This document shows positions 15,755 to 64,000 of a stretch of 64,000 bases of DNA, one piece after another. Source of the stretch: an uncultured Planctomycetia bacterium. GTDB lineage: Bacteria; Planctomycetota; Planctomycetia; Pirellulales; S012-138. Under the pieces are notes generated by a model. That model saw only the letters and a list, made by a program, of their open reading frames with translations, was not told where the DNA came from and did no database searches. The position numbers were made by a program, and so were the translations under genes. The stretch lies in the NCBI GenBank assembly GCA_963809785.1, contig CAWEKV010000002.1:849748-913747 (forward strand), read 5' to 3'. Every line of letters begins with the position of its first letter. The stretch's first letter is position 1.

Positions 15755-16490
15755 TCAATCCGACAGCTCGCCCAGCTCTTTCCGCAGGCGGTGCAGCACA
15801 CGCGATTTGGCGACTCGGACCGTGCCGGGCTGCATCGACAGCTCCTGGGCAACCTCCTGCGCGGTCTTGCCGTCCACGACCACTCGCCAGAAGGCCTGCC
15901 AGGTTTGCCCTTCGAAGTGGCCGGCGATCTGCTGGAGGGCCCTGCGAAACAGCTCGCGAAAAGGCAGGTCTTCGGGCAGCACGTTGTCGTGCCAGCTCGC
16001 CTCCAAGTTTTCGCTGCCGGTGATTGGTGCGCGCGCGCTTCGCGTGCCGTCCGAAAGGACGGCACGCGAAGCGCGCCTGCTGCTCTGCTCGCTGTCCTCT
16101 GCGGCGGGAAGCTCCGAGAGGCGGAGCTGCGCGGTCGTGCCGCCGGTGGCGCGCGGGCGGCGCGACTCGCGGCGGAAGTGGTCGCGGACCTTGTTCGTCG
16201 TGATGCGGCGGAGCCAGCCGCGAAACGTGTCGCCAGGGCTGTCCTTGTGAAAATCCGGCATCTTCCTGGCAACCGCCTGGAACACGTCCTGAAAGACGTT
16301 CGGCCATGTCCTGCTCCGCCAGGCCCAGCTTGCGGCACCAATAATAGACGAGCGGAGCATAGAGCGCGACCAACTGCTCCCAGGCGGCCGGTTCCCGGTC
16401 GCGCAGCGCGGCCAGCAGACTGCGCGACGTTGCCGTCTGCGAATCGGTCGGACCGTGCGGTACGGTGTTGGACGACACTGGGGAACTCAA
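15755..16490 (-). CDS. ECF RNA polymerase sigma factor (one frameshift)
   Basis: TSRSLL..LRDREPAAWEQLVALYAPLVYYWCR, DVFQDVF, TFRGWLRRITTNK; region 4 TWQAFW...AQEVAQELSMQPGTVRVAKSRVLHRLR. Confidence 0.9.
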
Positions 16491-16501
16491 CCTATTGGGT
16501 C

Positions 16502-16647
16502 AAATCCGAAATTCGAAGCACGAAATCCGAAACAAGGACCGAATACCCAAGGACCGAAACCTCGGGCGAGCGCGTGGGCTTGTTCGCGATCATTCGTGCT
16601 TTGAATTTGTTTCGGATTTCGGATTTCGAGCTTGGGATTTCGTGCTT
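16502..16647. repeat. Inverted arrays of AAATCCG/AAATTCG/AAGCACG heptamers
   Basis: Left arm 16502-16560, complementary right arm ~16592-16647. Lies between the kinase and the sigma gene. Confidence 0.9.
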
Positions 16648-16650
16648 CCG

Positions 16651-18629
16651 TTATCGTGCCCGCGCTCCCAGCCACAAGGCGAGCGAAATCCCCACCAGGA
16701 TCACGGCCACGCTTCCCATGATGACAAACGTCCCCCGCAGTGGCGATTGCCTGCGCTCGGTGTCAGGTTCCAGCGGGCGCGTCACCTCGAGCACGCCGGC
16801 CAGGTCACCGACTCTCCAATCCCGTTTGGGGCTGCGTCCTTGTCGCCGTTGTGACAGCTCAGGCAGCTCTCCTTCATGACTTGGGCTTTGGCGAACCGCA
16901 CGACCCGGCGGCCGTCTTTCTCGGCAAACTCGTGAATCGACGCGTCGGCCTCGCCAGCGGCGAGGCGGTCGCCCAGCACGTCCAGCGCCCGGCGCTGGAA
17001 ATCGTCCTTCGAGCTGCCGCCCGGCCGCCAGGAATGGTCGCTGTAGAGGCGGACTTGCATGCCTGATTCTTCGGCGATCCCGTCCGGACCGGGCTTGCCG
17101 CGGCTGATCCGCTCGCCGATGTCGATCAACAAGGTGGCGGGCAAGGGAATCGCGTTGCCTTTGCCATTTTCACTGCGCTTGTTGATGGACTCGTACTGAT
17201 CCGTCACGTTGACCTTGCGCCGGTCCAAGTGGTCCACGATCTCGTCATTGTAGTAGGCGTTGATGCGCTCCAGCATGTCGGCTTCCATGCGGGCGCTGTC
17301 CAGGGCCGTTTCCTCGACGAACTGCGTGGAGAGCCGAGACAAGTACCAGAAGCCGGCGATCGAACCCAGCGAGACCATCAGCAACAAGCTGGCGGCCAGC
17401 GGATACCGCCGGCACCACCGCCACAGCCGCTCGAGATGGCCCATCGGCCGGGCAGCGATCGGCTCGCTGGCAAGAAAACGCCGCAGGTCGGCCGCCAGGT
17501 CGGCCGCCGACTGGTAGCGGCGGGCCGGCGATTTGGCCAGCGCCTTGAGGCAGATCGTCTCCAGGTCGCGCGGCACGCCGTCGTTGAGCTGCCGCGGCGG
17601 CCGCGGCTCGTCCTCCAGCACCTGCAACAGCAGCATCCGCCGGTTGCCTTGGAACGGCCGCTCGCCCGTCAGCAGCTCGTACAGCACGACGCCCAGACTG
17701 TAGACGTCGGTCCGCGCATCCACTTCGTGCGATTCGCCGCGGGCCTGCTCGGGCGACATGTAGGCCGGCGTGCCCATCAGCCGGCCGTCAGACGTGATCG
17801 TCTCGCCGGCATCCCCCTTGGCCAGTCCGAAGTCCATCAGGTGCGGGCGGCCCTGACCGTCCAGCAGGATGTTCGACGGCTTGACGTCGCGATGGATCAC
17901 GCCTTGTTCATGGGCATATTGCAAGGCGTCAGCGATCTCGGCCACTAGCTCAGCCGCGCCGCGGTCGTCCGGCCGCTTGGACTGAAGCCGCTTCTCCAGC
18001 GTCTCGCCCGCGATGTATTCGGTGACCAGAAAGCAAACGTCGTCGTCGGTGTGTCCCGTGTCGTAGAGCGAGACGATGGAAGGGTGCTTGAGCTGGGCGA
18101 CGCTGCGGGCCTCGCGGAGAAAGCGCTCGACCTCTTCCGCGCTGGCGAAGCTGCCGGCCCGCTGGATCTTCAGGGCCACGGTCCGGTTGAGCGCCGTGTC
18201 GCGCGCCCGAAAGACGTAGCCGAACGATCCCACGCCCAGCTCGGCCTCCAGCTCGAACCGCCCCAGCCGGCACGGCCCCTCGGCCAGCTTGCGCGCCAAA
18301 CGGCGGCCGGGGTCGAGCGAGAGGCTGCTCTCCTCGGCCGAACTGGCGTCCTTGGCGCTCATGGCCACGTGAACGAGCCGGTCGGGCACACCGGGCCGCG
18401 TCGTCCCCTGTGATCCCGCCCCGTTCGACGCCACATCGAGCTGATGCAGGTCGGTGAGCAGCCCGTCGGCGTAATGATCCAGCTCCTGAAGCGAGGCATC
18501 GCAGCGTGGGCAACCAGCAACGTGCAGGGCGATCTCTTCGAGTTTTGTCCCGGCCAGATCACCCACGGCAAACGCCTTCAGGTCCTCGAGGCCTGGGCAA
18601 CGGGTGGTAGGTTCAGATGGCGTCCCCAT
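16651..18629 (-). CDS. Ser/Thr protein kinase with N-terminal HxxxCxxC anti-sigma-like finger, TM helix and extracytoplasmic c-type heme domain (DUF3365/Tll0287-like)
   Basis: HVAGCPRC; LGVGSFG, VALK, HRDVKPSN, DFGLAK, GTPAYMSPEQ; then a TM helix, PLPAT, VRLYSD, CLSCH and GVLEVTRPL (after a frameshift near 16830). Confidence 0.9.
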
Positions 18630-18736
18630 GTTTCCCCCGATCATGCGGCAAGCGCGCGGGCGGTGCGCAGATAGACATTTCATCATAACGTAGAGGCGTT
18701 ACGACTGCGCACACCGGCTTACATGAGTGCGAGGAG

Positions 18737-18849
18737 GACAACCACGAATCACACGAATAACACGAATGGTTTGTCGCGACGAATATTGGGGACCCATGAG
18801 AGTCGCGCTGTACTCTTCATTCGTGCTATTCGTGTGATTCGTGGTTGTC
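18737..18849. repeat. Inverted arrays of (A)CACGAAT 9-mer-period repeats
   Basis: 32-bp arms (18737-18768 and 18818-18849) with one mismatch. The right arm encodes the last codons of DUF790. A related arm lies at ~63019-63050. Confidence 0.9.
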
Positions 18850-24642: not shown

Positions 24643-26610
24643 ATGCCCGTGCGCCAAAGTCCCCTTTCCTCTCGAATTGTTTGGATCGCCGCGCTGCTGG
24701 GGCATCCCGCGCTACTGGCAGGGTGCCTTCTGTCCGTCGCGGCGACTGCTCCTGCCATCGCTCAGGAGGTCACCGAGCCGGAGAGCTACCTCCGGCTCAA
24801 TTACTCCAAGCGCGAGGTCAACGTCCCGGTGCGGGACGGCGTGAAGCTCTTCACGACGATCTACGCGCCTCGCGACGCGACGCGCAAGTATCCGCTGCTG
24901 ATGCTGCGCACGCCGTATGGGGTAAAGCCATATGGCGAGCGGGAGTTTCCCAAGTCGCTGGGCCCCAGCATGCACTTTGCCCGCGAGGGATATATCTTCG
25001 TCTATCAGGACGTGCGCGGGCGGCACCTGTCGGAAGGCACGTTCGTGCAGGTTACGCCGCACGTCTTGGGCAAAAAGTCCGCCGACCAAACCGATGAAAG
25101 CAGCGACACCTACGACACCATCGAGTGGCTGCTCAAGAACGAGGCCGGCCATAACGGCCGCGTGGGCCAATGGGGCATTTCGTACCCCGGCTTCTACTGT
25201 TCGGCCGGCATGATCGACGCCCACCCCGCCCTCAAGGCCGTCTCGCCGCAGGCGCCGGTCGGCGACTGGTTCTTCGACGACTTCTTCCACCACGGAGCGT
25301 TCTTCCTGGCCCACGGCTTTCGCTGGCTGTCGGCCAACGGCGTGCGGCGGGAGAAGCCGACGACCAACGAGTTCACGCCGTTCAACTATCCCACCCGCGA
25401 CGGCTATAAGTTCTTCCTCGATATCGGCCCGGTGCACAATGCCGACAAGCGCTACCTGAAGGAGAAGGTCGATTTCTGGACCGAGCTGATGCAGCACCCC
25501 AACTACGATGATTTCTGGAAGCGGCGGAACATCCTGCCCCACCTGAAGCGCGTGGCCCCGGCCGTGATGACGGTCACCGGCTGGTACGACGCGGAGGACC
25601 TCTACGGATCGTTCGAGACCTATCGCCACGTCGAACGGCAGAACCCCGGCGTGAACAATGTGCTGGTCGTCGGCCCCTGGGTGCATGGCGGCTGGGCACG
25701 CACCGGCGGCGACCACCTGGGGGCGGTCGATTTCGGCTCGAAGACGGCCGACTTCTATCAGAAGCACATCGAGCTGGCGTTCTTCAACAAGTATCTCAAG
25801 GACGCTGATCTGCCGGCCCCGCCCGAGGCCACGGCCTTCGAGACGGGCGGCAACCGCTGGCGCACCTTCGACACCTGGCCGCCGCGCGGCACGAAGGCGA
25901 TGACCTTTTACGCGCAGTCCGGTGGCAAGCTGGCGACGGCGGCGCCGCAAGGGGCCCCGGCCTCCGGCGGTGGGGACGGCGGTCTCTATGAAGAGTTCGT
26001 CAGCGACCCCAACCGGCCGGTCCCGTACATTGAGACGATGTCCCACTCGATGACCAACGAGTATATGGTCGATGACCAGCGATTCGCCGCCCGCCGGCAG
26101 GACGTGGTGGTCTATCAAACGGACGCACTGAGCGAAGACCTGACGCTGGTCGGGCCGCTGAATGCCGAGCTATGGGTCTCCACCTCACAGGCCGACGCTG
26201 ACTGGGTGGTGAAGCTGATCGACGTTTTTCCCGACGATCATCCGAGCAATCCGCACACGCCGGCCCATCAAACGATGGGCGGCTACCAGATGCTGGTCCG
26301 CAGCGAAGTGATCCGCGGCCGCTTCCGCAACAGCTACGAGAAGCCCGAGCCGTTTAGGCCCGGCGAGCCGGCCAAGGTGCCCGTCGTCCTTCAGGACGTG
26401 CTGCACCGCTTCAAGAAAGGGCATCGCCTGATGGTACAAGTCCAAAGCAGCTGGTTCCCGCTCGTGGACCGCAACCCGCAGAAATGGGTCGATAACATCT
26501 TCTTCGCCAAGCCGGCGGATTTCGTGAAGGCCACGCACCGGGTGTATCACGCGCAGGGGCAGGCGACGTGCCTGAAGTTCGGCGTGCTGCCAGACGGCGG
26601 CGCGAAGTAG
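24643..26610 (+). CDS. CocE/NonD family hydrolase (alpha-amino acid ester hydrolase/glutaryl-7-ACA acylase-like)
   Basis: VRDGVKL, RTPY, QDVRGR..SEG, nucleophile motif GISYPG, GWYDAED, GPWVHG and QSSWFPL. Confidence 0.93.
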   Translation: MPVRQSPLSSRIVWIAALLGHPALLAGCLLSVAATAPAIAQEVTEPESYLRLNYSKREVNVPVRDGVKLFTTIYAPRDATRKYPLLMLRTPYGVKPYGEREFPKSLGPSMHFAREGYIFVYQDVRGRHLSEGTFVQVTPHVLGKKSADQTDESSDTYDTIEWLLKNEAGHNGRVGQWGISYPGFYCSAGMIDAHPALKAVSPQAPVGDWFFDDFFHHGAFFLAHGFRWLSANGVRREKPTTNEFTPFNYPTRDGYKFFLDIGPVHNADKRYLKEKVDFWTELMQHPNYDDFWKRRNILPHLKRVAPAVMTVTGWYDAEDLYGSFETYRHVERQNPGVNNVLVVGPWVHGGWARTGGDHLGAVDFGSKTADFYQKHIELAFFNKYLKDADLPAPPEATAFETGGNRWRTFDTWPPRGTKAMTFYAQSGGKLATAAPQGAPASGGGDGGLYEEFVSDPNRPVPYIETMSHSMTNEYMVDDQRFAARRQDVVVYQTDALSEDLTLVGPLNAELWVSTSQADADWVVKLIDVFPDDHPSNPHTPAHQTMGGYQMLVRSEVIRGRFRNSYEKPEPFRPGEPAKVPVVLQDVLHRFKKGHRLMVQVQSSWFPLVDRNPQKWVDNIFFAKPADFVKATHRVYHAQGQATCLKFGVLPDGGAK

Positions 26611-26800
26611 CAGGCACACTCCGTGTACCTTCGAGTGTGGCCAACTCGCTCCGCGAGTTGGAGATTCCTTGCCTGCCTGCGGTCCGACGGCCGGAGTGCG
26701 GCCCAAGCTCTGCGGCCGTCAACTCGCAGAGCGAGTTGACCACAGTGCAGTTGACCACACGTAATGTCTCGCTCCGCGAACCGCAGCGAGGTAGGCTGGC
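26607..26800. repeat. Mosaic REP cluster: family A arm supplying the CocE TAG stop, plus a GTGGyCAACTCGCTCCGCGAGTTG / CAACTCGCAGAGCGAGTTGACCAC doublet
   Basis: Short palindromes visible directly at 26607, ~26637, ~26718 and ~26767. Confidence 0.75.
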
Positions 26801-26859: not shown

Positions 26860-28542
26860 ATGACGACCATGCTTCGCGCACAACGTAGGACGGATTTCCA
26901 ATCCGTCCGTCCACTGTCTCGACGATGTCCCTCTCGGACGGATTGGAAATCCGTCCTACTCTTGCTGTTGCTCGGGCCGCAGTTGGCCGTCGCTCGCGAG
27001 CCCGAGGTCACGTTTGCCGCCGAGCGCGGGCAATTGCAGGTGCGCCTTGCCGGCGAGAACGTCGCCACGTACGTGTTCGAAGATGAGACGATCACGCGGC
27101 CGTTCTTCGCGCACGTGCGCGCGCCCGGCGGCATCCAGGTCACCCGCAACCATCCACCCAGGCCGGACGATGCCCAGGACCACGCCACGTTTCACCCCGG
27201 CATGTGGCTGGCTTTCGGCGACTTGGGCGGGCACGACTTCTGGCGGCTGAAGGCCAAGGTCATGCACGCCGGCTTCGTGGAGAAGCCCAGCGGCGGCATG
27301 GGGCGCGGCGGCTTCGCCGTGCGCAATCGCTATCTTTCGGAGGATGGAAAACAAACCGTCTGCACAGAGGTCTGCCGCGTGACATTGCACGCGCAGCCCG
27401 AGGGCTACGTGCTCGTTTGGGACAGCGCCTTCTCGTCCGACGATGCCGATTTTACTTTCGGCGATCAGGAGGAGATGGGCCTGGGCGTGCGGCTGGCCAC
27501 GCCGATCGCAGTGGCGAACAAGACAGGCGGCCGGATCCTCGATAGCGCCGGCCGCCGCGACGGCGCCGGCATCTGGGGCAAGTCGGCCGAGTGGTGCGAC
27601 TACTCCGGCACCATTTCCGGCAAGCAGGTGGGCGTGCTCGTGGTGCCCGATCCGGCGAGCTTCCGCTCCTCGTGGTGGCATGCCCGCGACTACGGCCTTT
27701 TGGTGGCCAACCCGTTCGGCCGCCAGGCGCTGACGGGCGGCGAGAAGAGCAGCGTGGTCGTCCGCCGGGGCGAGACGCTGCGGCTGCGGTTTGGGCTGCT
27801 GATCCACGCCACGGCACTGCCGAAGTCTGATGCGGAGGCCCGCTTCGATCCAGCCGCCGCCGCTCGCGACGTGCTCGCCTTATTGAAAGCGTCGGCCGAG
27901 GATAAGACGCTCAAGTACGTCCGCCCCTCGGCCAAAGGTCCGGTGGAGGAGAGCGAAATCCGATTCGAGGGCGACACGGCCGGGCAAACGATCACGAGTG
28001 TCACCACGCGCGGCACGACGACGTTGACGCTCACCTCGCGTTACGCTGGGGAAGGGCGGCTCGCGCCAAGCCAGCGTGCGATTGGAATCGAAAACCTCCA
28101 TGAAGGCGTCTCTGGCAGCGGCCACCGTGACCGTCGCCGACGGCAAGGCGATCGTCGAGCGCACGGGCGGGAACCGGCCACGTTCGACTGCCCGCCAGGG
28201 ATCATCGTCACGTCCGCCCCCGATTGGACCGACGCCGTGGAGGCGGTGCGCCGCTACATGCCGTCGGGGACCGTAGCCCAAGAGTACCCCGGCCTCTGGA
28301 TTCATCCGACGCAGGAGCCGGCGCGGCTCACGTTCAAGCTCGTTCGCCAGTCCGAGGACGAGGTCCGTCGCGCCGGCCGCGCGGCGGGGCTGCTGCGGCT
28401 GGTGCTGGAGCTGCGCGGCGGCTCGAAGTACACCGTCTGGCGGAACGACGCCGGCCAGCTCGTCCGGCTGATGCCGCAGGGGAAGCCGGAGCAGGCGATT
28501 GTGCTGGCCGGCTGGGAAGAGGCCACGGGGGAATTGAAATAG
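26860..28542 (+). CDS. PmoA-like (PF14100-type, not methane monooxygenase) secreted protein fused to an unknown C-terminal domain
   Basis: RPFFAHV, DHATFHPGMWLAFG, DFW, FGDQEEMGLGVR, WCDYSG and WWHARDYGLLVANPFG. Compensating frameshifts are likely near 28070-28170. Confidence 0.8.
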   Translation: MTTMLRAQRRTDFQSVRPLSRRCPSRTDWKSVLLLLLLGPQLAVAREPEVTFAAERGQLQVRLAGENVATYVFEDETITRPFFAHVRAPGGIQVTRNHPPRPDDAQDHATFHPGMWLAFGDLGGHDFWRLKAKVMHAGFVEKPSGGMGRGGFAVRNRYLSEDGKQTVCTEVCRVTLHAQPEGYVLVWDSAFSSDDADFTFGDQEEMGLGVRLATPIAVANKTGGRILDSAGRRDGAGIWGKSAEWCDYSGTISGKQVGVLVVPDPASFRSSWWHARDYGLLVANPFGRQALTGGEKSSVVVRRGETLRLRFGLLIHATALPKSDAEARFDPAAAARDVLALLKASAEDKTLKYVRPSAKGPVEESEIRFEGDTAGQTITSVTTRGTTTLTLTSRYAGEGRLAPSQRAIGIENLHEGVSGSGHRDRRRRQGDRRAHGREPATFDCPPGIIVTSAPDWTDAVEAVRRYMPSGTVAQEYPGLWIHPTQEPARLTFKLVRQSEDEVRRAGRAAGLLRLVLELRGGSKYTVWRNDAGQLVRLMPQGKPEQAIVLAGWEEATGELK

Positions 28543-28543: not shown

Positions 28544-29740
28544 ATGCAGCGCCGAGATTTCCTTCGCCGCGGAGTGTGTCTTGCTGCCACGCGCCCTCGT
28601 CTGCCGGATCGGCTCCCGGCACCAGCGCCCGCCGCCGAGCAAGTGGACCCCGTCGCCGGCCTGGCGTCTCTCTTGGAACCGATCCGCGAGGCCCACAACG
28701 TCCCCGCCTTGGCTGGCGCGGTCGTGAAGGACGGCCGCACCGCGGCACTTGGGGCGGTCGGCGTGCGGAAGCACGGCGACAAGACGCCCGTCACGGCCGA
28801 CGACCAGTTCCACCTCGGCTCGTGCACCAAGTCGATGACCGCCACGCTGGCCGGAATGTTCGTCGAAGAAGGCAAGCTGGCCTGGGACAGCACGCTCGCC
28901 GAAACGCTCCCCGACCTGGCCGACAAGATGCACGAGGACGTGCGCGGCGTGACGGTGGAGCAGCTCTTGCAGCATCGCAGTGGGCTTTCCTCCCGCAGCA
29001 GCCCGGCGGGAGTGTCGCTCGGCGAGTTCGTCGGCGGCAAGAAGTTCACCGGCACGCCGCGCGAGCAGCGGCGGGCATACGCCGAGATGATCCTCGCCGA
29101 GAAGCCGGCCGACCCGCCCGGAGCAAAATATGTCTATTCCAACCGCAACCATGCCCTGGTGGGCGTGATGCTGGAGACGCTCGCCGACCGGCCCTGGGAG
29201 GGCCTGATGCGCGAGCGGCTGTTCCGCCCGCTGGGGATGACGACCGCCGGCTTCGGGGCCATGGGCACGCCGGGCAAGATCGACCAGCCCTGGCAACACC
29301 GCCTGCTCTTCTTCTTGCACGTGCCGGTCGAGCCGGGGCCGCGGGCCGATAACCCCGATGCGATTGCGCCGGCCGGCACGGCTCACTGCTCGATCGGCGA
29401 CTGGGCCAAGTACATTCGCTGCCACGTGCGCGGCGCGAAGGGAGACGGTGCGCTGCCCGGCGACGGGGCAGGCCCTCGCCATCTGCTCGCCCCGGAGACC
29501 TACCGGCGGCTGCACACGCCGGCCTTCGACGGCGACTACGCCGGCGGCTGGATTGTCACTCGTCGCCCGTGGGGTGGGCGAGTACTTACCCACAGCGGCA
29601 GCAACACGCTGAACTACGCCGTGGCCTGGCTATCGCCGGGGCGCGGCTTCGCGGTCCTGGCCATGACCAACCAAGGAGGCGGCGCCGCGGCCCAGGCGTG
29701 CGACGACGTGTGCAGCGGGCTGATTCGGGAGTTCTTGTAG
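28544..29740 (+). CDS. Serine hydrolase, beta-lactamase class C/PBP family, with Tat-like signal
   Basis: MQRRDFL; GSCTKSM (SxxK), YSN and HSGSN. The TAG stop lies within a GTAGGACGG REP arm. Confidence 0.92.
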   Translation: MQRRDFLRRGVCLAATRPRLPDRLPAPAPAAEQVDPVAGLASLLEPIREAHNVPALAGAVVKDGRTAALGAVGVRKHGDKTPVTADDQFHLGSCTKSMTATLAGMFVEEGKLAWDSTLAETLPDLADKMHEDVRGVTVEQLLQHRSGLSSRSSPAGVSLGEFVGGKKFTGTPREQRRAYAEMILAEKPADPPGAKYVYSNRNHALVGVMLETLADRPWEGLMRERLFRPLGMTTAGFGAMGTPGKIDQPWQHRLLFFLHVPVEPGPRADNPDAIAPAGTAHCSIGDWAKYIRCHVRGAKGDGALPGDGAGPRHLLAPETYRRLHTPAFDGDYAGGWIVTRRPWGGRVLTHSGSNTLNYAVAWLSPGRGFAVLAMTNQGGGAAAQACDDVCSGLIREFL

Positions 29741-29858
29741 GACGGGATTCATTCCGTTCGACGATCGAACAGATTATCTGAGGCTTGATCCCCGATGCGC
29801 CGTTTCTTCCGCTTCTCGATCCGTGACGTGCTGTGGCAGGGGCGGCACGCGTGCGGCG

Positions 29859-30024: not shown

Positions 30025-31777
30025 CTATCCCGCCTCCGGCAGATGATGTCTGGCGTCAACGGGCCGGATCAGCAGGTTGGCCACCAGCGCGATCCCCAGC
30101 AGCGCGGCCATCAGGTACATCGTGGAGTTGTAGAGCGTGCTGGATGGATCGATGGTCCCTGGCGGGACCAGCTCCATCAGCCGGGGGATCGTGACCGTCT
30201 TGCCGGTCACCAGCAGATCGAGCTGATCCAGGGGTGCGCCGAAGGCCTCGCGAAACGCCGGGGGATCGACCTGTCGGCCAGGTCGTCGATCGCCGAGCGG
30301 ATCGATCGTTCGCGCAAGCGAGGTGATGGCCAAGGGGCCGAGCACGCCCGCCGTGCTCCAGGCGGTCAGCAGGCGGCCGTGGATGCCGCCGACGTAGCGC
30401 GTGCCGAACAGGTCGGCCAGATAGGCGGGAATCGTGGCGAACCCGCCGCCGTACATGGTGAAGATGAGCATCGTCACGGCGTAGAACAGCACCAGCCACG
30501 TGACGGCGGGCGACACGCTCACCCGATACGCCGCCAGAGGGATCGACAGGTACAGGGCGATGCCCAGCACGAAGAAGATCGTGTAGGTGGTCTTCCGGCC
30601 GAGATAGTCCGAGGCGCTGGCCCAGAAGAAGCGGCCGACCATGTTGAAGACGCCGATCATCAGCACGAACGTCGCTGCGAAGCCCGCATCGACGATCGCC
30701 CGGCAGCGTGGTGCCGAAGATGTCCGTCATCATCGTCTTGGCCACGCCCAGGACGCCGATGCCGGCCGTCACGTTGAAGCACAGCACGATCCACAGCAGA
30801 TAGAACTGCGGCGTCTTCACGGCCTGGTCGACCGCCACGTCGTGCGCGCTGATCAGACGGCGCGAGGTGGTATCGCGGCGGGCGGCGTCCAGCCGTCCGG
30901 CTTCCAGCCCGGCGCGGGGATGCGGTACGAAAAGGCCGCCATCAGCATCACGACCAAGTAGGCCGCCCCCAGGACGAAGAACGTTTCGGCAACGCCCGTG
31001 CGTCCGGTGCCGACGACGTAGACTCCTTCGGGTCCCTGGACCATCATTCGTGGCACGTCGCCTGGGCCCACGACGACGACTTCCCGCCATTGGCCGGCAT
31101 CAGATTCTGGCCCGGTCACTCCGTGACCGAAGCTCGGGTCACGGAGTGACCCGACCACATGAGCGAATCGTCGCCCGCCCTCGGTCTTGAGGACTACCTC
31201 GCTGACCGGGCCCAGGTAATCCGGTGCGACGTAGAACGACTGGATCAGAATGCTCCTTCAACGGGGCTCCGATGATCGCGCCGCCGCCGAAGCCCATGAT
31301 CGCCATGCCGGCCGCCATGCCGCGGCGGTCGGGAAACCAGCGGATGAGCGTGCTGACCGGCGAGACGTAGCCCAAGCCCAGCCCGCAGCCGCCGATCACG
31401 CCGTAGCCCAGGTACAACAGCCAGAGCTGATGGAAGACGATGCCCAAGCCGCCGATCAGGAAACCGCCGCCCCAGCAGATGGCGGCCACGGTGCCGACCA
31501 TCCGCGGCCCGACCTGTTCGAGCCACTTGCCGGCCAGCGCCGCCGACAGGCCCAGAAAGACGATGGCCACGGTAAAGATCCACATCACCTCCGATAGCGT
31601 CCAGTCGTCCGCCGCGCCGGCCACGACGCCGCGCACGCGGATCAATGCCGGGTTGAAGATGCTCCAGGCGTAGACCGAGCCGATGCAGAGGTGGATGGCG
31701 ATCGAAGCCGGCGGAACCTTCCAGCGATTGAATCCCGGCGGGGCGACGATGCGTTCTTTCGAGAGGAAATCGATCAC
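30025..31777 (-). CDS. OFA family MFS transporter (frameshifted)
   Basis: FNRWKVPPASIAIHLCIGSVYAWS, GLGLGYVSPVSTLIRWFPDRRGMAAG, YGGGFATIPAYLADLFG and IHGRLLTAWS. Confidence 0.92.
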
Positions 31778-31971: not shown

Positions 31972-34900
31972 ATGGGGAAATCGTCGCACCCTCGAGACGA
32001 TCGTCGTCCTGGCGACCATCGTCAGCCTACTCACCGCAAACCGGCGATGGAGTTGTCGCCGCAGCGGGCCGATGACTATCGCGCCCAGGTCACCCCCGAC
32101 ACCTGGCGTTATGCCGCCCAAGGCCCACTGGCCGGCAAGGTGAAGCCGCACGTGCTGCGGCTCGGCCGGCGCGACGCCCGCCGCGAGCGTCACGGAGCCG
32201 GGGGGCGATTCAAGCCGCTCCTGCTGCTGGTGGTCTTCCTGACAGTCGGCGCTTCAGTTGCCTGGCACCTGCATCGAGCCGAGCTGGACGGCGTACGCGA
32301 GCATCGCTCGTCGCTCGTGCCGGGTGCTCGAGCGCCGCTCGATGCCCCCGGAGCAGTGCCGGGCGACAATGCCGACCTGCCGCCGCCGATCGTGCCGTCG
32401 GAGCTTGGCTCGTCTCCTTGGCAGGGCGAGGTCCCTGCACGGCCCGCGCCGGAAGGGGCCGCGCCGGAAGGGGCCGCGCCGGAAGGGGCCGCGCCGGAAG
32501 TACCCGAACCGTGGGCCGCCGTGTTGGCAGCCACCGGCGAGCCGCCGCCGTTCGAGGCCGTTTGCTTCGATGACTCTCCCCTCGAGCAGCGTGCATTCAA
32601 GCTCGCGGAGGCAAGACGCTGGCTCGCCGCGATCGTCGGCCAAGGGCTGCGCGAGAACTCCGATCCGCGGCAGGGCACGATGATGGAAGGGCTTTCGAAG
32701 CTGCGTGCCCCCTGGCCGGCGGGCACTGCGCTGCGGCTGAGCCTGACTCCCGCCCAGGGCTTCCGCGTCCGTATCTCCGCGGGCGAGGCGGCGGTGACGC
32801 TCGACTATACCCAGCAACCGAGGCCGGCATGGGCGGCTTACGCAGCGTCAGGCAAGCTCCGTGTGCCGTCTGACGGCACACGGAATGTGCCTGCTACTTT
32901 GGCCCTTATCGGCTCGGATAACGACCGTTATGCCCGCACTGGCGGCGGCCCGATCACGCTGCACTACCACGATGGCCAGTTGGTGATGACGCGGGGCGAC
33001 GTGCAGCTGCTTTCCGCGCCGCTGCCGGCCCAGCCGAGCGAAGTACATTTCGAAGGCTCCGCCGTGTGGCGCGGGATCGCGCTGGTGCGCTGCGGCCCGC
33101 CGCCGCTCGAGGATGAGCCGCGCCCGGTGGTGCTGCGCTCCGACAAGCCGGCCAGGCTACCTTGGCGATTCAATCCGCTCCGCGGCGCCAGGCTGCAGAA
33201 GAGCGACGACGGGCCGGTGCGGCTGGTCGCGCAGCGCACCGCCAGCGACGCCCTGGCGACGTTCCGCGTAACCGAGCCGGGCTTGCACGAAATCGTGATG
33301 CAGGTCGCCGAAGCGCAGCCGGGCACCGGGATCTTCTTGGGCGACAAAGACGGCAAGCCGATCCATCGCCTGGGCTTCCTGCGAGAGCGGCCCGGCGGAC
33401 GGCTGACGGCCGAGTATTCGCCGCCCGGTGAGCGCCGCGAGGCGGCCGATTATGCCACTCACGCCCAGCCGCCGCTGGTGCGCGGCGGTCAGTGGTTCCG
33501 CCTGGTGCTGGGGCTGGGCACGTTCAAGGCCTGGACGAGCGCTGACGGCCGGCATTGGGCACGCCTTCAATCGCCGCCGCGCGGCACGCCGCTGGGCTAC
33601 GGCACGATCGGGATCTATTGCCTGCCGGGCGAGGCCGAGCGGGCGATCTCGCTGACGCATCTGGAGATTCGCGAGCTGTCGGCGCTCACGTCGTTGGCTT
33701 CGGCCGATGCCCGCGAGCGGGCCGTCACGCTGGAGCACGTTTCAGACATGGCTTCGTGGCTGCAAGCCGTGGCTGAGCGTCAGCCGAGCGGCGGGGATGC
33801 CAAAGACGGGAAAGCCAAAGACGGGAAAGCCAAAGACATTGCGTCCGACGATTGGCGGAGGGCGTGCGCGCTGCGGACGTTGGCCGGCTCGCCGCCGCGC
33901 GAGCTGGCCGTAGCGCTTCTGGAAGGACTGGTGCGCGAAGCCATCGCCCAAGGAGACCCCGTGGCGGCGGTCCTTGCGGCCGGAGATGGCAACCACGAAG
34001 CGCGCCCGGGGCTCGACACGTCGGGCTTACGCCTCGACGCTCGCCGAGGAGCAGCCGCTGATTCGCGGCTTGCCGTCCTCGAGGAGGCCGGCCTGCTGTC
34101 TGACACTTGGGACAGCGCCGGGGCGGCGCGATTGCTGGCTTGTTACGACCGGCTCGGCGAGGCGTTCGTGCGAGAGGGCCGCCCCGGACGGTCCGCGCTG
34201 CTCGCCTCGGCGCTGGCCGGCAGTGAAATCTGGACCGCCGAGACTTCGCGGCCCGGCGATATCCTCCGCGGCCCCTGCGCCAAGAGCGAGCTGCTGGAGC
34301 GCGTGGAGGGTGGCCACTGGGCGGCGGTGCAGGAGCTGACGGCGCAGCTCGACTATTGGCGTTGGCCTGGCGATGCCACCCAACGCAGTCTCTGGCAACC
34401 GCGAGAATTGACCCCCTGGATCGAGTGGGGCGGCTATCTTGCCTCCCGGATGGGCGGCGTAAAGACCGCCCCACCGCGAGGCGAGGACGGCGCAGTGCCG
34501 CGCGGGCCGCGCATCGGCCGCCGGCCCAGGCCGATCTCGGAGGACGAAAGGCGCGAGATCGAACGCCGCAATGCGTCGCGGCATCCGCTCATCGAAGAGA
34601 TCAGTAAGGACGGCTTCAACCTGATCGCCGAGTTCGAGGCCTCCCTGGCGGGCGAAGCCTACGAAGACGCCTGCCAGACCGCCATGACCGCCGATCCGCA
34701 AGCGGCCCTGGGCTTGCTCCCCTGGGCCAAAGACTCGCAGCTCTCGCTGACCTTTCCCACGGCCGTGGCCGTGGCGATGCAGACGCATCCCGGCCTCCGG
34801 GAGACGATGCTGGAGCGGTTCGCCGCGCCGGGCGTCGTGCGTCTGCGGCAAGCCAAGCTGGCCGGCGACGTGGCGGCCGTGCGGGCCACCACGGTGCACC

Positions 34901-36993: not shown

Positions 36994-36998
36994 TAACA

Positions 36999-37076
36999 AT
37001 TTGCATTTGCATTTTGCATTCGTCGCTCACTACGGACTCCGTGGATTGCAAAATGCAAAGTGCAAAATGCAAAATG
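36999..37076. repeat. Inverted arrays of TGCAAAA heptamers
   Basis: tttgcatttgcattttgcatt ... tgcaaaatgcaaagtgcaaaatgcaaaatg. Preceded by a family B REP arm (36967-36993) that encodes the end of the upstream gene. Confidence 0.85.
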
Positions 37077-38393: not shown

Positions 38394-38536
38394 AATGACG
38401 AATGTCTAAGCACGAATGACGAAGGAATGACGAATGTCGAATGACGGAATGACGAAGCACGCCTACGAGACATCGTGCACTTTCGTCATTCGTGCTTCGT
38501 GCTTCCTTCGTCATTCGAGCTTCGTCATTCGTCATT
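38394..38536. repeat. Inverted arrays of AATGACG heptamers
   Basis: Left arm 38394-38460, right arm 38482-38536. Confidence 0.9.
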
Positions 38537-38571
38537 CCCTTATCATTCAGGAATCGTGTAACTCATCCTGA

Positions 38572-41340: not shown

Positions 41341-41443
41341 TCCGGCCCCAACGTCCAACGTCCAACGTCCAACGTCCAACGTTGAACGAAAAGACGGTTC
41401 GACGTTGGACGTTCAACCACATCCCGCACGCTTTCTTGGCACG

Positions 41444-51090: not shown

Positions 51091-51250
51091 CCAATGACGA
51101 ATGACGAAGCTCGAATGACGAATGACGAAGGAATGCGCAAGGACCAAGGTCGAATGATCAGATCATTCGTCGGCATGGGCGTTTCGACATTCGGGCCTCG
51201 TCATTGATTCGTCATTGATTCGTCATTCGAGCTTCGTCATTCGTCATTGG
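51091..51250. repeat. Inverted arrays of AATGACG heptamers with perfect 33-bp terminal arms
   Basis: ccaatgacgaatgacgaagctcgaatgacgaat and its exact reverse complement ending at 51250. Confidence 0.92.
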
Positions 51251-52324: not shown

Positions 52325-52359
52325 GCGAATCGCCGATACAGCAAGCGTCGAGAGTTGTT

Positions 52360-53032
52360 TCGTTTAGCCGCGAGCCAACGGCGAGCACGACCATGGTCCA
52401 CGCTTACCATGTGATCTTTGGCGCTTACGGTTTTTGGCTTCCTAACGACCCACGCGGCTCTTGGTCAACATTCGTGAAATCCTGGGAATTGCTTCGGTTC
52501 GGGCCGGCCACGAAAACGACCGAACGCCGCTCGCTGGCCAAGCGGCCCCACGACCACTCGCTGCGCCAAGCCGCCAAGCAAGCGCTGAAGTATCCACCCG
52601 TCCGTTTCTCCGGCATTCAAGCTCGGTCCGTCGGCACAGGGTTCGCCAACTGCGTGGCCAAGAGCGGACTGATGATCTGGGCCTGTTCCATTTTGCCGGA
52701 GCATGTGCATCTGGTCATCGCTCGGCACTCGTACGATGTTGAGCAGATCGTCAATCTGCTCAAGGGAGATGCGACTCGGCAACTCAAAGCCGACAACATC
52801 CATCCACTGCACGATTACCGGCGGCCTGACGGCCGCATTCCCAAAGCGTGGGCCGACGGTCAGTGGAAAGTATTTCTCGATGACGTGCGTGATATCCGTC
52901 GCGCCATCCGGTACGTTGTGAATAATCCGCTCAAAGAGCGCAAGCCGCGGCAGCGATGGACGTTCGTGACGGAGTTCACTGCGTCGTCGCTGCGTACGGT
53001 GCGCTGCTCGCCGATGGCTCGCGGCTAAACGA
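52360..53032 (+). mobile_element. RAYT-like element bounded by 28-bp inverted repeats
   Basis: 52360-52387 (tcgtttagccgcgagccaacggcgagca) matches the reverse complement of 53005-53032 with one mismatch. Confidence 0.8.
52393..53028 (+). CDS. Y1 HUH transposase, REP-associated tyrosine transposase (RAYT)-like
   Basis: AYHVIFGAYGFWLPNDPRG, ILPEHVHLV (HUH), LKG and AIRYVVNNP (catalytic Tyr). Confidence 0.88.
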   Translation: MVHAYHVIFGAYGFWLPNDPRGSWSTFVKSWELLRFGPATKTTERRSLAKRPHDHSLRQAAKQALKYPPVRFSGIQARSVGTGFANCVAKSGLMIWACSILPEHVHLVIARHSYDVEQIVNLLKGDATRQLKADNIHPLHDYRRPDGRIPKAWADGQWKVFLDDVRDIRRAIRYVVNNPLKERKPRQRWTFVTEFTASSLRTVRCSPMARG

Positions 53033-53053
53033 CAAAAATCACCGACAAACGAT

Positions 53054-57482: not shown

Positions 57483-57496
57483 TGCCGGATGCATAA

Positions 57497-57578: not shown

Positions 57579-60500
57579 ATGTGCTGGCAACTTCTTTTGA
57601 GGGCCATGTCATGTCGGGCGAGTCTGGACCCAGTGGCATGCGCTAAATGGTGGGCCGTGCCCACCCTACTTGTGGCGGCGCTGGCCGTGGAGGCGGGCGC
57701 GCAGATCAAGTCGCCGGCGGGCAAGGCGCCCACGACGGGCAAGGCGCCGACAACGGGCAAGGCGCCAGCAACCGGCAAAACGCCCACCGGCAAAATGCCC
57801 CCCGGCATAGGCATTCCGCTCCCCGTGGGCGGACGCGACAGTTTGCCCGGCGACGACTACTACGTGGCCTATCTTCCCTATCTGGAAGGCCGGTTCGTCG
57901 AGGCCCGCAAGGCCTTCGAGAAGTCGCTGAGTTCGGCGCTGCGCGGGAGCAACGGCCGCTGGGTCGATTCGATCCCGGCCTACGCGATGATCGGCGAATG
58001 CTCCTACCAGTTAGGCAATCACGGCGATGCGATCAAGGCCTATCGAGAGGCCTTCCGCTGGTATTTGGCCTATGACGCCTTCCTGACACGGATGACTTGG
58101 AACGCCGGTGCGCTGCGGGCGCCAGCCACCGTGCCGCGCGTGCCGGGCTTTCCCGAGAAGCGAGTCGGCAAGCTGGCCGAGTTCCCCAAGAGCGAGCCGT
58201 TCGTCCAGGGCTCCTACTACAACATCGGGCGGACCACCGTCGATACGCGGCACATCAAGCTGCTGGACGTGCACGAGGTCGTGAGGACGCTGGCCATCGC
58301 CCTGCGACGCTACGGCGAGCTGCTGGGCCCGCTGGCCGCGGAAGATCCGCTGCTCAAGGACGTCGGCCGACGCCTGGCGAGCAACCCCGGCCAGGCCGAT
58401 CACTGGTCGCGGTCGCTGACGGATATGCTGGCGGGCGTGGCCCAGCGCAGCGGCCGGACGCGACGGCCAGGCCGAGGCCTCGCTGAAAAGCGGCCTGTTG
58501 GCCTATCGCGAATTCGAGCATCCGCTGACCGCGATGGCCCTGCTGGAGTTGGGCCACGTGGCATTGCGGAAGGACAAGCCGGAGGACTTGAAGCAGGCTG
58601 GCGAGTATTTCGAGCTGGCAGCCCATGCCGCGATCCCGTTCTTCGAAGAGAACGCCCCCGGTTGGCTGGGCGTGCCGGACCTGATCGAAGAGGCCTTCCG
58701 TTACGGCGGCATCGCCTACCGGCTGGGCAGTCCCAAGGAGCCCTTCAGCCTGGCCGAGCCGATGGCCGAGTGGGCGGCGCAGCGCCGCCCCAAGCTGACT
58801 CACTTGCACGCTTCACTGCTGCTGGACGCGGCCGAGGGCTACGCCGGCCTGCGACACCCAGCCGGCGAGGCGCGGCAGACGACGCAAGCTGACGGGCTGC
58901 TCAAGCAGGCCCGGCAGGTCCTCTCCGCGGGCCGCGGCGAGCTAGGCGCTGCCCGCATCGGGGCCCGCTTTCATCAGCTCGAAGCGCTCGTCCGTTATCA
59001 GCAGGGCAACGTCGGCGCGGGCGACGCGGCAATCGGCCGGGCGTTGGACTTCCAGATCAAGCGCGGCGGTTCAACGCGGCTGGGGCACGTCGGACTGCTC
59101 GAGCCGGGCCCCACCAGCCTGGTCCCGTGGTTTGCCGCGCTGGCCCCGGTCGATTTGCTCAAGGTCTACGAGGCCGTGTTTCGCGAGCCGACGCCGCGCG
59201 ACTGGCAAGTGGAGCCGCTGGAGTCGTTGTCGGTGCTGACGGCGCCCCACGGTCCGGCGATGGAACGCTGGTTCCGCCAGGCGCTGCGAAGCAATCGCGG
59301 CGGCGGCGTGGCGGGGCTGGAGGTCTCCGAACACATCCGGCGGCACCGCTTCTGCACGGCCCTGGAGCTCGGTGGCCGGCTGCTCTCGCTGCGATGGCTG
59401 CTGGAGACGCCTCGTGATCAGCTCGACGGCGATGCAGCGAAGCAACGGGGCGAGCTGCTCGCGCAATACAAGGATTACGGCGCCCTGGCCCAGCAGGTGG
59501 ACCAGCTCCAGACGCAATTGCAGGCGATGCCGCTGGTGATCGATGCCAAGGACCGCGCAGCCGCCGAGGTCCAGCGGACGAAGCTCACGGAGATCGCCCG
59601 GCTCAGCGGCCAGCAGGAAGTCCTGCTGCGGCAGATGGCCGTAGACCGCGTGTACGCGCCGCTTTTGTTCCCGCCAAAGCGCTCGGTCAAGCAGGTTCAA
59701 GGATCGCTGGCCAAAGGGTGTTCGCTGCTCGTCTTCTTTGCTACGTCGCCCGCCGGAAAAACTCCCGCCGAGCTCTATGCCTTTCTGTTGACCGGCGCTG
59801 GAGCCGACTATCCCTTCTGGACGCTGGCCCAGCCGCCTGGCGGTTTCAACCAGGCCACGCGCAAGCTGCTCCGCGAGCTGGGGCAGTTCGGCCGCGACCG
59901 CCAAGTGCCGCTTGCCGAATTGCAAAAGACCGACTGGCAGGCGCCGGCCGCCGAGATCTTCGAGCAACTGTTCACGGCGAGCCCGAGCGGCACCGCCGGC
60001 ACGCTCGCCGCCGGCATCGAAGAGCTGGTCATCGTCCCCGACTCGGTCTTGTGGTATCTGCCGTTCGAGGCGCTCCAGGTTGCCGACGCCGCGGGCAAGC
60101 GCCAGCCGCTGATCAACAAATATCGCATCCGGTACGCGCGAACCATGTCGCTGGCCGTGCCCGGCAGGCAGGGCCACCAGACGGGCGGCAACCTGGCCGT
60201 TTCGGTCGGGCAACTCATGCCCGGGATCAAGGAAGCGGCACGTGCCCAGGCCGGCTTCGACGACCTGCGCCGCGTAGTGCCCACCGCGGTGCCGCTGCCG
60301 GGAGTTCCCCCGGCACCCTGGTCCGTATATTCGACGCTCTTCGATCGGCTGCTGGTGCTGGATGACATCGATACGTCGGTCGGGCCTCTGACGTTGCGGC
60401 CGATCAAGAGCAAGACGACCGGGTCGGCCGCTCTCTCGTCGCCGTTGGGCGAACGGCTGGGGCCGGCCGGCTCGGACGGCTGGATGAGTCTGCCGTGGGG

Positions 60501-60948: not shown

Positions 60949-60950
60949 CT

Positions 60951-61311: not shown

Positions 61312-62529
61312 TCACTTCCCTTCGCCCAGCCACGATTGTCCGTAATCCACGTCCTCCAGCCCCAGCACGCCGCGGGCTACTTGCAGCGGGCGGAACGTGT
61401 CGAGCATCACCGCCAGCTCTTTGGTCTCTTTCTTGCCGATCGAGGCCTCGGCCCGCCCCGGGTGCGGACCGTGTGGCAGGCCGCCGGGGTGTACGGTCAG
61501 CGAGCCGTAGCCGATGCCCTTGCGGCTCATGAACTCGTCGTTGGCGTAGTAGATCACCTCGTCGGACATGACGTTGGAGTGGTTATAGGGGGCCGGCACC
61601 GCCTGCGGGTGATAGTCGAATAGCCGCGGCACGAACGAGCACAGCACGTAGCCTTCGGCCTGGAACGTCTGGTGCACCGGCGGCGGCTGGTGCAGCCGGC
61701 CGGTGATCGGCTCGAAGTCGTGGATCGACAGCGCCCAGGGATAGTAGTAGCCGTCCCAGCCGACCACATCCAGCGGATGGTGATCGAGCGTCACCTCCGT
61801 CAGCACGTCGCGCTGTTTGACCACCAGCCGAAACTCTCCCTGGGCGTCGTAGGTCGCTAGCTTCTCGGGCCCGCGGATATCGCGCTCGCAATACGGGCTG
61901 TGCTCGAGGAACTGCCCGCGATCGCTCAAATAGCGGCGAGGCGGCGCGACCTGGCCTCGGCTTTCGACCACCAGCAGCCGCAGCGGAAACTCGCTCACGC
62001 GATAGCGGTGCATGATGCCGCGAGGGATGACCACGTAGTCGCCCCGGCGAAAGGTCAGCTCGCCGAACTCGCTCTCCAGCGCACCGCCGCCGTCGCTGAC
62101 GTAGACGATCTCGTCGGCCTGGCCGTTGCGGTAAAAGTGCTCGTCCGGCCGTTCCCCCTCGCCCTCGTGAAGAGGGCCGCCTTGAGCGGCCTTTGTTGCC
62201 GCCGCTTCAACGTGGACCATCCACAGCACCACGTCGCCGTTGAACAGCGCCGCAGCGCGGTCCAACGTGGGACTCTTGGCCGCCGGCAGCTCGGCCAGGT
62301 GAAAGTGTCGCATCCGCAGCCGCGGATCGGGATCGGCCTCGAGCCGCACCTGCGTCAGCACGCGCGTTTGCACCACGCCGGTGGGCTTGTGGATGTGATA
62401 GAGCAGCGAGGCGGGCCCGGAGAATCCCAAGCTGCCCATCAGGTGCTCGCTGTAGAGCTCGCCGCTGGGCTGGCGAAACACGGTATGCCGCTTTCGCGGC
62501 ACCTCGCCGAGACGATGATAGATCGGCAT
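61312..62529 (-). CDS. hmgA: Homogentisate 1,2-dioxygenase
   Basis: MPIYHRLG.VPRKRH, GFSG.ASLLYH, HPLDVVGWDG, HQPPPVHQTF, PYNHSNV.SDE and HPGGLPHGPHPG (Fe ligands). Confidence 0.95.
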   Translation of the reverse strand: MPIYHRLGEVPRKRHTVFRQPSGELYSEHLMGSLGFSGPASLLYHIHKPTGVVQTRVLTQVRLEADPDPRLRMRHFHLAELPAAKSPTLDRAAALFNGDVVLWMVHVEAAATKAAQGGPLHEGEGERPDEHFYRNGQADEIVYVSDGGGALESEFGELTFRRGDYVVIPRGIMHRYRVSEFPLRLLVVESRGQVAPPRRYLSDRGQFLEHSPYCERDIRGPEKLATYDAQGEFRLVVKQRDVLTEVTLDHHPLDVVGWDGYYYPWALSIHDFEPITGRLHQPPPVHQTFQAEGYVLCSFVPRLFDYHPQAVPAPYNHSNVMSDEVIYYANDEFMSRKGIGYGSLTVHPGGLPHGPHPGRAEASIGKKETKELAVMLDTFRPLQVARGVLGLEDVDYGQSWLGEGK

Positions 62530-62731
62530 GTCGCGATTCCCCCGCAAGTGGTCCGGCCTGGCCACTACAATTCTAGCGGCCAAGGCGAGCGGGGGAATGT
62601 CGCCTGTGCCCCTCCCCGCCGCCAGTCTCGGCAGCGGTCTGGCCCGCGAAGCACTCGTCCCAAACATTTCGGGAGGGGCATGAGAAAGAACCATGAATAG
62701 CACAGCGCGGCGTAGCCGCAACGAAGCAATG

Positions 62732-62806
62732 AAACAGAAGGCAACGAAGCAAACGCAGAATGCGTGGCCAGTCTCTTCCTTCGTTGCCTTCGTTTCCTTC
62801 TGTTCA
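62732..62806. repeat. Inverted AACAGAAGG/AACGAAG 9-mer-period arms
   Basis: aacagaaggcaacgaagcaaacg ... cttcgttgccttcgtttccttctgtt. Confidence 0.75.
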
Positions 62807-62830
62807 ACTGCCTTTTTGAAGCTCAATTCG

Positions 62831-62942
62831 ACGGTCCAGGTCGTTGCCCGCGAACTTCTTGTTTGAACAGGAGGGAACGGAGGAAACAGAGAGCCTCGTG
62901 GCGCATCGGACGACTCTCTGTTGCCTCCGTTCTCTGTTCAAA
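62831..62942. repeat. ~110-bp palindromic MITE-like element, copy 2
   Basis: Reverse-complement match of 21798-21908. Confidence 0.85.
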
Positions 62943-63051
62943 GGTCTTCGCGCGGCGCGACGAATTCGAGTTTGTAGTACGAAGAGCACAGATGAAGAAG
63001 GCAGCACTCGCGTTTTCTATTCGTGTTATTCGTACTATTCGTGGTTGTCCT

Positions 63052-64000
63052 CTATTTCAGTACTTGCAGCACCGCGGCAAAGTCGTCGGTCCAAACCAGC
63101 GGCGGCGGGTCGCCCTCGGTCCAGTCGCTTGCTTCCCCGGCCACGGCGGCTAGAAACTCCTCGTTGTCGGTGATGAGGACCCACACCCCGCCCCGTGCTC
63201 CGTGCGCCGGGTCGTCGCCGCCCAAGACGCGAATCGCCCTGCGCCCCAGGTGCTGCGCGATCCCCCGGGCGACGGGCGTCAGATCCAGCACGTTGTTCGA
63301 AAGGTGCAGCGCGAGCAGCCCCTCGGGCTTGAGGTGGCGAAAATACAGTTCGGCACACTCCGCAGTGAGCAGATGGATGGGGATGGCATCGTTGCGAAAC
63401 GCGTCCACCGCCAGCACGTCGAATCGCCGTGAGCCCTTCTCTTGCAGCTCTTGCTTCAGGCTAAGCCGCGCGTCGCCCAGCACGATCTGGACCTTCGCCC
63501 CGACGCTCTCGGCGTCTTCGAGGAAGGTGAAGTGCCGCCGGCACAAGTCCACGACGGCGGGATTGATTTCATAATAGCGGATGACGTCGCCCCTCTGGGC
63601 GTGGGCGGCGATCGTGCCCGTGCCCAGGCCGATGACGGCGACATGAAGCGCGTGGTTGTCGCTCCGAGTGTCGTTCTCACTCTGAGCGGAGCCAACGGCC
63701 TTGGGTGACACCGCGCGAGATTCTTCGCTGCGCTCAGGATGACGGCCGGTGCGGCGCGGTGGAGGCGCATCGCCAGGTCGATGCCGCTGCCGCGGCCGAA
63801 GTAGAGCGTGGGCCAGCGGCGCTGCTCGTCGCCGAGGTATTGCCGGCCGTGGTCGATGCGGCCGTGTACCATGCGGCGGTAAGGGCCGACGGCGTCGCTC
63901 CCTTCGACGATCCGTAGCACGCCGTAGAAGTTGCGCACCGCGTGCGTGGCGTTGAGCTGGCCGTAGTACATCTCGCCCGCCAGGACGACGACGAGCGTCA
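63052..64000 (-). CDS. Fused MFS/spermidine synthase-like SAM-dependent protein, C-terminal part (partial; frameshift near 63660-63710)
   Basis: RNFYGVL, HGRIDHGRQ, VIGLGTGTIA, YEINPAV, LGDARLSL, DVLAVDAF..DAIPIHLLT and WTDDF. Confidence 0.9.
   Translation of the reverse strand, partial: DARRRPGGRDVLRPAQRHARGAQLLRRATDRRRERRRRPLPPHGTRPHRPRPAIPRRRAAPLAHALLRPRQRHRPGDAPPPRRTGRHPERSEESRAVSPKAVGSAQSENDTRSDNHALHVAVIGLGTGTIAAHAQRGDVIRYYEINPAVVDLCRRHFTFLEDAESVGAKVQIVLGDARLSLKQELQEKGSRRFDVLAVDAFRNDAIPIHLLTAECAELYFRHLKPEGLLALHLSNNVLDLTPVARGIAQHLGRRAIRVLGGDDPAHGARGGVWVLITDNEEFLAAVAGEASDWTEGDPPPLVWTDDFAAVLQVLK

Follow-up and report, generated by a model that had tools for sequence, protein, structure and literature searches.

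REP-like palindromes inside planctomycete genes are probably tolerated, frame-filtered insertions

Short palindromes of the repetitive extragenic palindromic (REP) type lie inside several protein genes of a 64,000-nucleotide stretch from an uncultured Planctomycetia bacterium (the window; contig C2, positions 849748-913747 of the source assembly, G000). They make an old question measurable, namely whether protein sequence built by selfish palindromes reflects design or tolerance. A first-pass annotation of the window had favoured design and proposed that the repeats insert peptides as a mutagenesis system aimed at linkers, loops and signal peptides. Local inverted repeats are present at the coordinates that it named. 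Comparison with a congener points to tolerance, with a probability of roughly 0.75: the repeats are insertions that were tolerated, passed through a purifying filter and trapped in genes, and were not targeted to them.

Frame preservation in conserved host genes

The source assembly comprises 8.47 Mb in 6 contigs and is 67% complete. It is rich in indels, with 1.95 frameshifts per kb when aligned to the congener, and the SHMT, GidA, major facilitator superfamily (MFS), CHAT2 and extracytoplasmic function (ECF) sigma factor genes of the window are split. The repeats were tested against orthologues because an open frame in such an assembly is weak evidence either way. From the congener genome (G001, 5% contaminated), 1.76 of 5.8 Mb was sampled, and 1,183 genes were called in the sample with a self-trained hexamer model. 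Alignment to the source genome was obtained for 873 of these genes; the 310 without a usable alignment were left out.

The repeat library was built from families of over-represented 19-mers. Before an audit it detected 2,685 REP-like elements in the source genome vs. 22 in the reversed genome, and 787 of the 2,685 consisted of two units forming inverted doublets. The audit dropped the entries R18, R90 and R9 (coding motifs or a coding array), which had inflated the counts (2,685 elements, 130 internal copies, 103 hosts, and 20/25 and 55/55 in the frame tests), leaving 2,584 elements in the source genome and 697 in the congener sample. The units are 20-30 bp long and the doublets at the window sites 44-100 bp. 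Families A, B, I and Q carry a GTAG tag at one end and families F and H a GTGG tag; families C, D and G end otherwise, and an unpaired GTAG-like tetranucleotide is thus not common to every family.

The first-pass annotation had proposed that orthologue alignments be searched for frame-keeping length differences at the palindromes, and such differences were found. In the congener-defined genes, 18 of the 22 sites with a REP only in the source genome are in frame and stop-free (p=4e-6 vs. 1/3), the null expectation for both properties being ~0.24 (1/3 x 0.72 stop-free). Sites that have a source-genome REP and a length difference are in frame and open in 32 of 38 cases. The reciprocal test in the cleaner congener showed that all sites with a continuous counterpart frame in the source genome are in frame and open (50/50, 25 of them empty in the source genome). 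In the 21 broken cases with a source-genome pair, the element lies in a spacer behind a stop in both genomes; a further 11 in-frame cases had a discontinuous source-genome site and 18 cases had no pair. Altogether, 53 presence/absence polymorphisms of intragenic REPs separate the two congeners. The composition of the inserts, compared with what a stop-free frame would allow, is low in Trp (0.5 vs. 1.8%), Cys (1.4 vs. 2.5%) and hydrophobic residues (17 vs. 22%), a descriptive comparison made without a significance test.

The host genes are under normal selection, with a ratio of nonsynonymous to synonymous substitution rates (dN/dS) of 0.163 (n=89, maximum 0.31) vs. 0.165 in the other genes (n=784, p=0.85). 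They are therefore not pseudogenes, and the concern that the hosts might be unexpressed relics is not borne out on selection. REP hosts make up 89 of the 873 genes (45 in the source genome and 77 in the congener), an internal REP occurs in 85 of the 1,183 congener genes, and ~5-9% of conserved genes carry an in-frame REP in the two genomes. The hosts assigned by NCBIfam (100 of the 103 pre-audit hosts) include ArgRS, IleRS, DnaA, KdtA, HemL, PurL, TrpD, MutS, two UvrA and HrpA. The three inserts of the congener ArgRS are gains over the medians of 53 outgroups (45 vs. 24, 32 vs. 17 and 60 vs. 36 residues), and two other lineages also have inserts at the third site. They model as coils with a predicted local distance difference test (pLDDT) score below 50 within a fold of pLDDT 88, the low values being partly due to absent alignment depth in those columns. 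The named relatives of this ArgRS belong mostly to Pirellulales and other Planctomycetota, in keeping with a planctomycete origin. The same loop is occupied by different REP families in 6 of 39 comparisons, at 5 independent source-genome sites.

Density, turnover and competing explanations

Counting over the genomes, also proposed at the outset, yielded many intragenic copies; however, REPs are ~10-fold depleted in genes (0.108/kb vs. 1.10/kb in spacers). The congener sample has 470 of its 697 elements between genes and 114 inside them, and calibration on 60 known sites puts the intragenic copies of the source genome at an estimated 327-368. The intragenic share is 13-16%, and 11 of the 18 grouped families have copies in genes. 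The same family was found at the orthologous site for 34 of 102 intragenic and 24 of 163 intergenic copies (33% vs. 15%, p=7e-4), in a test that counts copies diverged below detection as absent in both classes alike. As the intragenic copies are more often shared, genes seem to act as a trap. Intragenic copies did not differ from the others in divergence from the consensus, taken as a measure of age (p=0.11 and 0.97).

In the mechanism that we favour, REPs are likely spread without preference for genes, presumably by REP-associated tyrosine transposases (RAYTs). Purifying selection likely leaves the stop-free, frame-keeping copies in predicted permissive loops, where the inserts would be translated as near-neutral extra loops. 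Copies in genes are likely kept longer than copies in spacers; the trap would arise if only in-frame deletions can remove an intragenic copy. Frame and stops account for about fourfold of the depletion in coding sequence, with the rest likely due to the small number of loops that tolerate an insert. The pattern of loops and preserved frames is what survival after selection predicts. The dozens of polymorphisms between the congeners allow both the filter (frame, stops and loops) and the slower loss in genes to be quantified, and each points towards tolerance. Where REPs have inserted, they mark permissive loops of conserved enzymes; in planctomycete proteins the inserts will also lead annotation and clustering astray.

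Several observations weigh against tolerance as the whole explanation. The genome-scale comparison rests on two genomes. Off-frame source-genome alleles accompany 14 of 62 REPs found only in the congener, where ~5 are expected from the background. Substitutions by codon position are nearly flat in same-length intragenic REPs (0.15/0.17/0.20, compared with 0.12/0.08/0.30 in genes), which hints at a constraint on DNA or RNA or at a detection bias. No cognate RAYT for the families at the intragenic sites of the window was found among the 13 Y1-transposase loci of the 67% complete source genome. The families also differ strongly in their intragenic share in the congener (A 25/31, I 0/53, L 0/41; chi-square p=3e-24), and age alone may not explain these differences. 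Family A is abundant in 3 of the 61 genomes searched, and 9 of its 23 intragenic sites are not shared.

These family differences give the most weight to a preference for genes. Family A, with ~61-68% of its copies intragenic in the source genome (corrected) where M, O, P and Q are near 0, could be a selfish REP lineage that lives chiefly in gene interiors, either by targeting a tetranucleotide in coding phase or by selection for a harmless linker peptide, and which keeps inserting into housekeeping proteins. If so, it would be a mobile element that evolves under constraint at the protein level, and its insertions would amount to a natural scan of the proteome for loops open to insertion, extending over the genus; we consider this unlikely. 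The wider proposal that several families, A above all, are gene-tropic, with a target preference or a benign peptide making coding loops their main niche, is decidedly unlikely. It is supported by the use of two stop-free frames by family A in a ratio of 44:4, mostly read as a GRIxNPS-type peptide. CTAC sits at one codon phase in 3,367 of its 3,588 coding occurrences (94%), so that a CTAC/GTAG target would give this frame bias even without selection. However, GTAG or CTAC is present in just 2 of 5 empty family A alleles (1/11 for the other GTAG families and 5/37 for the others), and characterised RAYTs cut at CT or CA dinucleotides, too common to direct insertion to genes (PMC8266576; this and the other papers cited were drawn on in part). 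Intragenic sites of family A are moreover shared more often than those of other families (14/23, p=0.002), which is what an older family left stranded in genes would show.

An adaptive system that inserts peptides into linkers, loops and signal peptides to diversify proteins, as the first-pass annotation had it, is very unlikely, although its factual basis partly stands: several REP families do lie in loops and linkers of genes, with the frame kept above chance. The many hosts, the reuse of the same loops by different families and the many RAYT loci would suit such a system. However, the depletion of REPs in coding DNA runs counter to targeting, the hosts cover unrelated housekeeping functions and the inserts show little synonymous-site bias. 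The RAYT-like gene of the window has no link to these repeats, and the one case tested in Rickettsia was neutral or slightly harmful (PMC2229807). Still harder to sustain, and in our judgement highly improbable, is a role of the hairpin in DNA or RNA (mRNA stability, pausing or nucleoid binding) with the peptide incidental. The lower third-position divergence of the intragenic REPs (0.20, compared with 0.30 in genes) agrees with it; however, only copies close to the consensus are detected, and this lowers the divergence, and the number of presence/absence polymorphisms speaks against a fixed need. Spurious open reading frames (ORFs), assembly errors or pseudogenes are a scarcely credible source of the pattern. 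The frameshift density of the source assembly, the three coding entries removed from the library and the off-frame state of the 63676 element as assembled could suggest an artefact, but the same pattern occurs in an independent assembly and aminoacyl-tRNA synthetases with normal dN/dS are among the hosts. The congener and dN/dS data largely refute the artefact.

Repeat sites in the window

Palindromes had been reported, mostly in frame, in named genes of the window, and six of the eight sites are indeed multi-copy REPs in frame (Table 1); the CHAT2 site brings no net gain and the 63676 element is out of frame. Five of the six in-frame sites are length gains relative to orthologues or homologues (the ECF, MFS and DUF4175-like genes and both sites of the 1673-residue protein). 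At <=2 mismatches the repeats have 96 (26885), 23 (31108), 94 (32872), 180 (34017), 75 (45124), 17 (63717), 7 (57648) and 7 (16033) matches in the genome, counted on both strands so that palindromes may be counted twice. Reversed controls (<=3 mismatches) gave 0 for every repeat but that at 16033 (7 against 19), which is a diverged family member.

Table 1. Coordinates of repeats and associated features in the window
Position	Strand	Feature	Remark
14101..14129	-	REP, family C, giving last residues and stop of DUF2330 gene	Paralogues' basic tails similar in length
16033..16076	-	REP doublet, diverged family B, in frame, sigma2-sigma4 linker of ECF sigma factor	Homologue alignment
26607..26626	+	REP, family B, GTAG tag overlapping TAG stop of S15 peptidase	
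26885..26959	+	GTAG-tagged REP doublet, family A, 75 nt, stop-free, predicted signal-peptide n-region of DUF6807/PmoA-like protein	
29737..29760	+	REP, family Q, GTAG tag overlapping TAG stop of beta-lactamase-family gene	
31108..31159	-	REP doublet, family F, loop of OFA-family MFS transporter	Homologue lengths
32845..32897	+	REP doublet, family B, in 1673-residue PQQ-repeat protein	Net +6 residues; shared with congener
34017..34045	+	Single REP, family C, inside 32-residue loop insertion of 1673-residue protein	
36967..36994	+	REP, family D, giving C-terminus and stop of 1673-residue protein	Shared with congener
45124..45204	+	REP doublet, family D, net +66 nt, in DUF4175-like gene	Congener alignment
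52352..53040	+	Y1/HuH (RAYT-like) transposase gene 52393-53028 between 36-nt terminal inverted repeats 52352-52387 and 53005-53040	PF01797 match
57648..57670	+	Single GTAG-type REP (tag on minus strand), in frame, predicted signal peptide of second TPR-CHAT gene (CHAT2)	
62152..62205 (approximate)	-	18-residue insertion in hmgA	Diverged form common to two close relatives
63676..63743	-	REP doublet, family G, loop of fused MFS/spermidine-synthase-like gene	Out of frame as assembled
2858-3074		Tandem-unit array	
7547-7713		Tandem-unit array	
16506-16642		Tandem-unit array	
18737-18849		Tandem-unit array	
37000-37076		Tandem-unit array	
38398-38537		Tandem-unit array	
41348-41417		Tandem-unit array	
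51093-51248		Tandem-unit array	
62704-62893		Tandem-unit array	

The ECF protein (ORF 15755-16360, with a +1 indel near 16305 relative to the congener) is ~18-30 residues longer at the doublet than 11 of the 12 other aligned homologues. The twelfth is the congener orthologue, which carries the same repeat family and a second doublet; dN/dS of this host is 0.22. In the 1673-residue protein the segment at 32845 has 34 residues and that at 34017 has 54, vs. medians of 28 and 22 in 59 homologues. No library REP was found at the congener counterpart of 34017, where the loop is 6 residues shorter. The MFS loop exceeds by 19 residues the 63 residues found in 90 of the 92 homologues measured, and the gene has two frameshifts away from the repeat. 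The DUF4175-like gene of the congener lacks the family D doublet and has a doublet of another family (69 nt) elsewhere. Both genomes also have, beside this site, a segment of ~110 residues of DUF1549 (PSCyt2; 45200-45500) within the gene, which looks like an inserted domain fragment.

The DUF6807 gene starts at 26860, and the family A doublet is read there in its rarer, Arg-rich frame. The distance from the start to the domain is 61 residues vs. a median of 37 among 61 homologues, which fits a 25-codon gain through the doublet, presumably translated. The CHAT2 site shows no length gain over the paralogue CHAT1, and no orthologue was found; nor were congener orthologues of the DUF6807 and MFS genes. 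At the spermidine-synthase-like gene one base present in both congener paralogues is missing from the source genome, in a C-run immediately 5' to the element, most likely through an assembly error. The loop has 31-32 residues in close relatives, and both congener paralogues hold a different REP family there. The congener carries two close copies of this fused gene (contigs C232 and C212) with the same REP in the loop of both; they may be paralogues or bin contamination. The insertion in hmgA, which had been listed as a weaker case, is real (42 residues vs. a median of 24 across 120 homologues), but its REP origin is not demonstrable, the repeat library having given no match.

REPs had further been said to supply stops or C-termini. 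The four 3'-end cases are real, although the S15 peptidase of the congener has the same stop without the REP at 26607. Stops lie within REPs for 57 of 418 TAG codons vs. 15 of 460 TGA codons in the congener sample. The DUF2330 gene (14111-15700) has 18 matches in the source genome, 16 of the other 17 at 85-97% nucleotide identity and four clustered on the contig of the window, and appears to be an unusually expanded, homogeneous family.

Transposases and related systems

A RAYT-like transposase had been noted in the window, and the Y1 gene is present, with an HVH motif read from the sequence and a PF01797 hit. It lies, however, between terminal inverted repeats (TIRs) and is not cognate to the repeats of the window. 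Its Y1 HuH domain between long TIRs resembles TIRYTs, the TIR-associated relatives of RAYTs (PMC3116915, PMC6006769, PMC8266576). The TIRs are low-copy (5 matches at <=2 mismatches), no library REP lies within 700 nt of the gene, and the gene is missing from the orthologous site in the congener; it was therefore rejected as the source of the inserts. At that site, between moxR and DUF58 on contig C399, the congener has unrelated DNA of similar length, and the spacer appears to be a swap site for mobile cassettes. Of the 13 Y1-transposase loci in the source genome, 9 have their own REP family on either side; this arrangement lends general support to mobilisation by RAYTs.

The inverted doublets, the GTAG and GTGG tags and the Y1 HuH genes flanked by their own REPs are shared with the REP/REPIN-RAYT systems in these three papers. 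Analysis of Pseudomonas REPINs concerned extragenic space only, whereas here ~1 in 7 copies is coding, as are most of family A. A mainly extragenic location, typical of REPs and REPINs, holds overall and fails for family A.

In-frame coding palindromes had been described as best known from Rickettsia. Rickettsia palindromic elements (RPEs) do insert in this way, but the statement is incomplete, as GTAG-tagged REPs in ORFs of Opitutus terrae have been described. The intragenic GTAG/CGTC-tagged REPs reported by Di Nocera, De Gregorio and Rocco in 2013 (PMC3733652) are, like the present ones, GTAG-tagged singlets and dimers within ORFs whose tags provide TAG stops, and their hosts include HrpA, both UvrA, PurL and the E2 acetyltransferase, as here. 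O. terrae, of the Planctomycetes-Verrucomicrobia-Chlamydiae group, has the highest intragenic GTAG count (70 rows and 62 ORFs, counted from its table S3). The planctomycete R. baltica contributes 8 rows, all hypothetical proteins, compared with the 5-9% of conserved genes here. The UvrA insert lies at about residue 228 of 940 and that of Oter_3168 at 224 of 999, which is close by coordinates only. Relative to that paper, the orthologue-based tests of frame, dN/dS and turnover are added here.

In R. felis, 85 of 728 RPEs lie in ORFs (12%; PMC1166351), close to the share found here, and like the present repeats they occur in frame within conserved genes. A Gmk that carries an RPE is translated and active (PMC2229807). 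RPEs measure 105-146 bp and occur in reduced intracellular genomes, whereas the present repeats are short units of many families in an 8.5-Mb assembly with 13 Y1 loci; they fall outside the RPE size range, a comparison of size made with no search for RPE sequence homology. No genome-scale orthologue study of coding REPs in planctomycetes was found in the literature searched, subscription papers (including Ogata 2000/2002 and Suyama 2005) lying outside it, and a search for five REP-encoded peptides found no paper containing any of them. The phenomenon is thus already known; new are the tests of frame and turnover and a family of which 25 of 31 copies lie in genes.

In a second repeat class, short tandem units, mostly of 6-10 nt, form inverted arrays, of which the source genome has 1,282. 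The arrays are mostly intergenic; some lie inside genes, with 13 of 17 sites in frame. In orthologous spacers the arrays often alternate with REPs between the two genomes. Near the start of the window, the ORF at 216-1079, which lies directly upstream of the SHMT pieces and matches intein/Hint weakly, is possibly an intein-bearing gene. Upstream of moxR, a long Gln/Gly/Pro-rich tandem-repeat coding region with 18- and 24-nt spacings occupies 49648-51039.

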